Part shown: positions 6,499 through 7,068 of the stretch, piece by piece
How positions within the stretch are numbered: the stretch's first letter is position 1
Layout of the letters: every line of letters starts with the position of its first letter
Source of the DNA: Escherichia coli
Lineage (GTDB): Bacteria > Pseudomonadota > Gammaproteobacteria > Enterobacterales > Enterobacteriaceae
Assembly: GCF_003334405.1 (NCBI RefSeq)
Contig: NZ_QOWM01000005.1
Length of the DNA: 64,000 bases
Reading direction: 5' to 3' (one strand)
Position numbers and translations under genes: made by a program
The notes under the pieces: model-generated
Databases searched by the model: none
Told to the model about the DNA's origin: nothing
The model's input: only the letters and a program-made list of their open reading frames with translations

Positions 6499-7068
6499 CG
6501 GATCGCTGGTTATCTGTAAGTAATAATTATTACCGTAATGCAAAATACCCCTGGCACAAGTTACATCCTTCATCAGTAAAACTTGTGCCAGATCAAATAT
6601 AATTATCCCTCCATCATCGCTAAAAATTAATATCTCTTCAGGTGAACGGTGTTTTTAATTTCAAAACGCTAACAAAAGTTAATTAACTATTATGTCACCC
6701 GCATTATGTGTATTTTTACCCACAAATGGGTAGATCAGATTAATCTATAAACCTAATGACATTTGCCCTGAGAACAAAAAATAGACCGATAAATATCAAT
6801 AAGATAACAGCAAACAAAACATTAACATCTGCGCAGTACAAACTATAAACCCATCGCCAGAGAGTCTTTCTCTCTGAAAAAGCCGCTTATCACAGTGCAT
6901 AAATTTGCCGCTGCTTTAATCAGCCAATATTCACTGTGAGGTATTTGCTAAAGCCGGTAACGACCAAACGGATATTTAGTCAGGCTCTGAAAACAGTTCA
7001 TACAAAACAGAACGTGACTGTGATCTATTCAGCAAAAATTTAAATAGGATTATCGCGAGGGTTCACAC

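Follow-up and report, generated by a model that had tools for sequence, protein, structure and literature searches.

The closest described system to the locus treated here is the FNR operator of the dcuB-fumB promoter of Escherichia coli. In the ChIP-seq study of Myers et al. (2013, PMC3688515), dcuB-fumB is placed in Category 1, 'directly activated by FNR', with FNR-dependent expression, and is credited in Table 1 with one FNR site, at -132.5, and with a peak centred at 4,347,259 (U00096.2). FNR is located at -41.5 in 19 of the 23 FNR-activated promoters with a known start site. FNR binding upstream of dcuB-fumB is already known, having been published since 2013, and no site-directed test of this operator was found in the literature. 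As regards the 3' end of the dcuSR transcripts that run toward dcuB, a literature search gave no relevant mention of a dcuR terminator. Two kinds of stem-loop are of use for comparison, those of classic intrinsic terminators and those that Dar and Sorek reportedly described in 2018 at the processed 3' ends of Rho-terminated transcripts.

The window, by which the whole stretch of 64,000 nucleotides analysed here is meant, is E. coli chromosome and includes the genes dcuS-dcuR-dcuB-fumB. Its region 6400-7100 matches strain FORC 064 at 100% identity, and 5,415 of 5,426 complete genomes contain it as a single copy; in strain 2021CK-01361 the region is split near 6756. Gene names follow the RefSeq annotation of identical E. 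coli DNA, and the genes are placed as follows.

4151-5782: dcuS (RefSeq annotation of identical DNA)
5779-6498, plus strand: dcuR coding sequence (open reading frame list; RefSeq annotation of identical DNA)
7069-8409, plus strand: dcuB coding sequence, the FNR-activated target (open reading frame list; RefSeq annotation)
8487-10133: fumB (RefSeq annotation of identical DNA)

The spacer between dcuR and dcuB is 570 bp long and has one base (6763) unlike K-12 MG1655. Window position x corresponds to position 4,355,813 - x of NC_000913.3, on the minus strand there, and U00096.2 coordinates equal those of NC_000913.3 minus 1,977; the coordinate offset is independently confirmed by a published SNP annotated at -354 from dcuB and +217 from dcuR. 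The only small open reading frames near the inverted repeat described below are of 32 and 37 codons, both overlapping the end of dcuR.

The first-pass annotation of this DNA had described a 12-bp inverted repeat 53 bp downstream of dcuR, and both parts of that description hold: the arms are 100% complementary around a 17-nt spacer, and the dcuR reading frame ends at 6498, with the repeat starting 53 nt past the stop. The elements of the repeat and the regulatory site that it overlaps are listed here.

6551-6562, plus strand: proximal arm, CTGGCACAAGTT, found in Escherichia only, plus C. koseri as GGCACAAGTT
6563-6579, plus strand: loop of 17 nt, the most variable part in Escherichia and among E. 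coli strains
6580-6591, plus strand: distal arm, AACTTGTGCCAG, overlapping the left half of the FNR site
6583-6596, no strand assigned: FNR binding site, TTGTGCCAGATCAA, whose centre at 6589.5 is at -132.5 from the dcuB start site

The distal arm was also proposed to belong to an FNR-like motif that might act as a distal regulatory site for dcuB-fumB, and this proposal matches the published FNR site. Table S6 of Myers et al. (2013, PMC3688515) gives TTGATCTGGCACAA as a predicted FNR site at 4,347,240 (U00096.2) near dcuB, under an FNR ChIP-seq peak, with a PatSer score of 12.3 and a ln p of -10.87 that passes the threshold of -10.75. This sequence is the reverse complement of 6583-6596, and 4,347,240 + 1,977 = 4,349,217 is window position 6596, in exact agreement with the Table S6 site. 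A search for an FNR peak, which had been suggested as a check, leads to the published one, whose centre falls at window position 6577 (PMC3688515). TTGTGCCAGATCAA occurs once in the window and agrees with TTGAT-N4-ATCAA at 8 of 10 positions, its ATCAA half being perfect. Counting of consensus matches alone is at chance level, with 48 window sites having at most two mismatches against 31 expected, whereas TTGnGnnAGATCAA is shared without change by 21 sequences drawn from the genera Escherichia, Citrobacter, Salmonella and Trabulsiella. The site is thus real because it is occupied and conserved, and not through its consensus match alone. The distal arm is part of the FNR operator of the dcuB-fumB promoter, and its anaerobic occupancy by FNR is shown by published data.

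The CRP (TGTGA) resemblance that the same annotation had seen in the distal arm did not survive closer inspection. TGTGC does resemble the TGTGA half-site, but the full motif TGTGA-N6-TCACA is matched at 6 of 10 positions, the other half at only 2 of 5, and no CRP match with three or fewer mismatches overlaps 6551-6596. Moreover, the conserved positions, TTG...ATCAA, belong to FNR and not to CRP, and a CRP site in the distal arm is hardly credible.

The FNR site lies at -132.5 and not at the typical activation position of about -41.5 or -61.5. The core promoter downstream of it is the following.

6711-6722, plus strand: dcuB core promoter, with a -10-like TATTTT at 6711-6716 and a start site at about 6722, derived from FNR at -132.5

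Several data sets agree with this placement. A sigma70 ChIP peak, higher anaerobically, lies at about 6716 and agrees with a start at about 6722 (Myers 2013, PMC3688515), as does an invariant run of 18 nt in Escherichia, 6705-6722. A gut-selected T>A change at 6715 turns TATTTT into TATTAT, a better -10 (PMC5094792), and insertions selected during mouse gut colonisation map to the dcuB core promoter, with IS2 at 6710 and 6731 and IS5 at 6946 (PMC5094792). The gut-selected dcuB regulatory mutations miss the repeat, the core promoter being about 120-140 bp downstream of it (PMC5094792).

Other promoter-like features are present in the spacer. A perfect TATAAT at 6598-6603 directly follows the FNR site and is invariant in Escherichia, with no usable -35 before it, and across genera a second -10-like element, TTAATAT at 6627-6633 (in Salmonella TATAAT), is conserved some 31-35 bp past the FNR site. 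Since the spacing between the FNR site and these -10-like elements is variable, they are a poor fit to a class II FNR promoter. The longest invariant run of the spacer, in all seven Escherichia lineages, is one of 47 nt at 6651-6697, which contains GTTAATTAACTATTA (6678-6692). We take GTTAATTAACTATTA to resemble an ArcA direct-repeat box. The run itself presumably sits at the expected DcuR site, about 27 bp upstream of the start site, a position which Abo-Amer reportedly gave in 2004 for the DcuR site of dcuB.

Considered as DNA, the repeat is an uncommon object. The window holds 4 perfect inverted repeats whose arms are 12 bp or longer and whose loop is 3-30 nt, where first-order Markov simulations predict 0.07. 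A dispersed repeat of the REP/BIME type was considered and rejected: the element sits at a single location in each of 5,414 E. coli genomes and, being single copy, is not a dispersed repeat. Other perfect inverted repeats in the window include one of 18 bp with a 20-nt spacer (13981-14036), located in the divergent melR-melA spacer, which we take to be two identical 18-bp MelR sites in inverted orientation. A 15-bp stem with a 4-nt loop lies between the convergent genes ghoT and lysU (2625-2658) and a 13-bp stem with a 4-nt loop between adiC and eptA (20145-20174), both of them probably terminators, judged by position.

One possible reading at the DNA level is a symmetric operator, in which the proximal arm would be bound by a second protein or FNR dimer acting cooperatively with the FNR on the distal arm. 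In line with this, 6551-6566, that is, the proximal arm and four further bases, is invariant in Escherichia and the arm centres are 29 bp apart. On the other hand, the proximal arm copies the weak half of the operator (TTGTG) and not the strong ATCAA half, one FNR site is counted in the peak (Myers 2013, PMC3688515), and the proximal arm is unconserved in other genera with the same dcuB gene context, all of which make such an operator quite improbable.

Considered as RNA, the repeat forms a stable hairpin, of -18.6 kcal/mol (z = -7.0) on the plus strand and -20.4 kcal/mol (z = -3.7) on the minus strand. The first-pass annotation had named the dcuSR terminator as one possible role, and this claim stands in part: a strong hairpin is indeed located in the 3' UTR, but it has no U-tract, carries a 17-nt loop, has no Term-seq end in aerobic data, and is confined to Escherichia and C. 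koseri. As a classic Rho-independent terminator of dcuSR, the element offers a stable 12-bp stem with 6 G-C pairs, 53 nt past the dcuR stop, followed by 13 nt that are all A or U except for one C. The loop of 17 nt, however, exceeds the short loop of 3-8 nt expected of an intrinsic terminator, and only 2 of the first 8 nt of the tail, AUCAAAUAUAAUU, are U, short of a U-tract. A promoter and terminator consensus scan of 6300-7200 returned 0 sites on both strands. Likewise, in MG1655 4348700-4349499, no Term-seq 3' end is called on either strand in the data of Adams 2021, which cover three aerobic conditions in LB or M63 in which dcuSR expression is low. The same publication reports a bicyclomycin-sensitive (Rho) region with a Rho score of 3.3, p = 4e-10, and a best position of 4,349,209 on the minus strand (Adams et al. 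2021, PMC7815308). As read-through goes up with bicyclomycin, the data point to Rho and argue against intrinsic termination, which is improbable here.

The features that bear on Rho are located directly past the stem.

6604, plus strand: position of the best Rho score, 13 nt past the stem, at coarse resolution (Adams 2021, supplementary file 2)
6605-6645, plus strand: C-rich, G-poor, rut-like tract, each of the seven Escherichia lineages having 11-13 C and 2-6 G there

Because the Rho coordinate comes from 800-nt coverage windows, it indicates Rho termination near the dcuR end and not a precise 3' end. Nowhere in the region is C more in excess over G than at 6600-6639, where the GC skew falls to its minimum of -0.83, and in Escherichia the composition of 6605-6645 is preserved while its sequence varies. 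Judged by composition, the tract looks like a Rho loading site.

A role on the opposite strand was also considered, in the form either of a terminator for transcripts entering from dcuB in the direction of dcuR or of a sigma54-type promoter (TGGCAC-N5-TTAC). Past the minus-strand stem comes GGUAUUUUGCAUU, in which 5 of 8 nt are U, but this U-run shifts away from the stem in other Escherichia, the aerobic Term-seq data hold no intergenic 3' end on either strand, and the scan of 6300-7200 gave no promoter-like site on either strand. The sigma54 candidate, TGGCACAAGTTTTAC, is TGGCAC-N5-TTGC on the minus strand with one mismatch, and it was rejected: sigma54-like matches number 6 against 7.5 expected, which is chance frequency, the mismatch falls on the GC of the -12 element, and the motif is not conserved, TGGCAC being lost in Salmonella and the C. 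freundii group. An opposite-strand role is very improbable.

The distribution of the hairpin was followed through dcuR loci taken from 80 species, 27 of them with dcuB downstream of dcuR. All seven Escherichia lineages have the proximal arm, as does C. koseri in the form GGCACAAGTT, while the homologous stretch of other Citrobacter, of Salmonella and of Trabulsiella is unpaired with the FNR site. When the same 68-nt stretch is folded, all seven Escherichia lineages give -18 to -21 kcal/mol (z about -5) and C. koseri -13.9 kcal/mol (z = -4), with a partly wobble-paired stem, while nearly all remaining sequences give -2.6 to -9.0 kcal/mol (z from -0.8 to +1.5), the exception being C. gillenii, which reaches -11.7 kcal/mol (z = -2.1) via a different small stem. 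The hairpin is a lineage-specific element in the dcuSR 3' UTR. Covariation across genera is not seen in 21 sequences, where paired cells make up 75.0%, with 73.9% in shuffles, and the score is 0.158 against 0.163, and an Rfam scan of 6000-7300, with E up to 10, returned chance matches only.

Within Escherichia, the proximal arm lies inside an invariant run, 6551-6566, in the seven lineages, and both arms are kept, in contrast to the loop centre and the 5 nt preceding the stem, which have changed several times; in the E. coli variants sampled, all differences fall in the loop or upstream of the stem. The sole arm change is C to T at 6582 in E. albertii, found also in C. koseri, which keeps a G-U pair on the plus-strand RNA and creates a C-A mismatch on the other strand. 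This change favours pairing of the plus-strand RNA, although as one event it gives a weak hint. Moreover, with 72% of intergenic columns unchanged throughout Escherichia, conservation of the arms is only moderately informative. A natural pig isolate, E. coli EP91B, carries an IS1 inserted in the hairpin loop, at the equivalent of window 6563-6570, with ACATCCTT duplicated at both flanks and the proximal arm parted from the FNR site.

In an alternative reading, only the FNR operator would be functional; the proximal arm would be there as a neutral by-product, such as a quasi-palindrome perfected by template-switch mutation, and the hairpin would be without a role. The hairpin is missing from most genera that retain the FNR site, and the lack of covariation, the lack of a mapped 3' end in aerobic Term-seq and an intergenic background that is largely invariant in Escherichia anyway are all as this reading would have it. 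Against it, perfect 12-bp repeats are about 60 times rarer by chance than observed, the repeat has survived intact in every Escherichia species and E. coli variant sampled, even though the loop and the 5 nt before the arms changed repeatedly, and C. koseri has a similar stem. A neutral arm is a genuine possibility, albeit a doubtful one.

The sequence between the dcuR stop and the repeat adds a further element. An AT-rich block at 6509-6546, directly past the dcuR stop and about 175-215 bp upstream of the dcuB start site, has the form GTTAT-N5-GTAAYAATTATTAC-N2-TAATGMAAAAT and is conserved in Escherichia, Citrobacter, Salmonella and Trabulsiella; in E. coli it holds a 14-bp palindrome, GTAATAATTATTAC. 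The 5' part of the block, TTATCTGTAAGTAATAAT, resembles the DcuR footprint TTATCTCACATAATTTAT reported at LEE1 (PMC10636207). In the C. freundii group, in Citrobacter sp. R56 and NCU1 and in C. amalonaticus ku, the block is inside a long hairpin of -14 to -25 kcal/mol whose G+C outer stems differ by group, being GGGGATT/AATCCCC, CAGGCCTGG/CCAGGTCTC or CTTAGCCTT/AAGGTTAAG, and a U-run comes after this long hairpin in the C. freundii group. The long hairpin is missing from Escherichia and C. koseri (z from +1.2 to -1.3), which do have the 12-bp repeat, while Salmonella and Trabulsiella have neither hairpin in a strong or clear form. This complementary distribution fits a turnover of the 3'-end hairpin. 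RNAalifold on a MAFFT alignment of the non-Escherichia sequences did not recover the outer stems seen in single sequences, because MAFFT leaves the stems out of register.

The preferred reading, to which we give an even chance, combines the FNR operator with a lineage-specific hairpin at the dcuSR 3' end that is linked to Rho termination. Under anaerobic conditions, as published data show, FNR sits on 6583-6596, 132.5 bp upstream of the dcuB start, and dcuB-fumB expression depends on FNR. Since the left half of the operator is complemented 17 nt upstream in Escherichia and C. koseri, the dcuSR 3' end can form a 12-bp hairpin there. Most likely, Rho loads on the C-rich, G-poor RNA past the hairpin and releases the RNA polymerase leaving dcuR, and the hairpin itself would then block 3'-to-5' exonucleases and thus leave a stable dcuSR 3' end. 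The same end could also curb read-through into the DcuR site and the dcuB core promoter. The part of the preferred reading that makes the hairpin the stable 3' end of Rho-terminated dcuSR transcripts is, taken by itself, nearly as probable, approaching an even chance.

A further extension is more tentative. The same 12 nt might be used twice, serving in DNA as the left half of the FNR operator and in RNA as the 3' arm of the hairpin, with an older terminator having been replaced in Escherichia and C. koseri; we regard this as possible but distinctly less probable than the preferred reading. The operator would have been recruited as a hairpin arm, and the older terminator would correspond to the long hairpin of the AT-rich block retained by Citrobacter. 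In a bolder version, bound FNR might act as an oxygen-dependent roadblock against read-through from dcuSR. No mention of the left half of the site doubling as an arm of a 12-bp inverted repeat was found in the accessible literature.

The region is an ordinary regulatory region and matters little beyond its annotation. Two small points concern the activation by FNR from -132.5 beside DcuR, and the Escherichia hairpin as a candidate dcuSR 3' end and insulator of the dcuB promoter. In practical terms, the region is relevant in that gut colonisation selects for dcuB regulatory mutations (PMC5094792).

Compared with the systems described at the outset, the operator itself is the known one: its sequence and coordinate are identical to those of the FNR operator of dcuB-fumB (Myers et al. 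2013, PLoS Genet 9:e1003565; EcoCyc/RegulonDB), and the site itself is no different. It shares the regulator and the type of site with the class I and class II FNR-activated promoters (-61.5 and -41.5, respectively), but at -132.5 it falls outside both. In the case of intrinsic terminators, what is shared is a G+C-containing stem soon past the stop codon, whereas the dcuR hairpin differs in having no U-tract and an oversized loop and in being missed by the consensus scan. From the stem-loops reportedly described by Dar and Sorek in 2018 it differs in its large, 17-nt loop and in having no 3' end mapped in aerobic Term-seq, but it is like them in being stable, without a U-tract and located in a 3' UTR, and in adjoining both a C-rich tract and a bicyclomycin-sensitive region.
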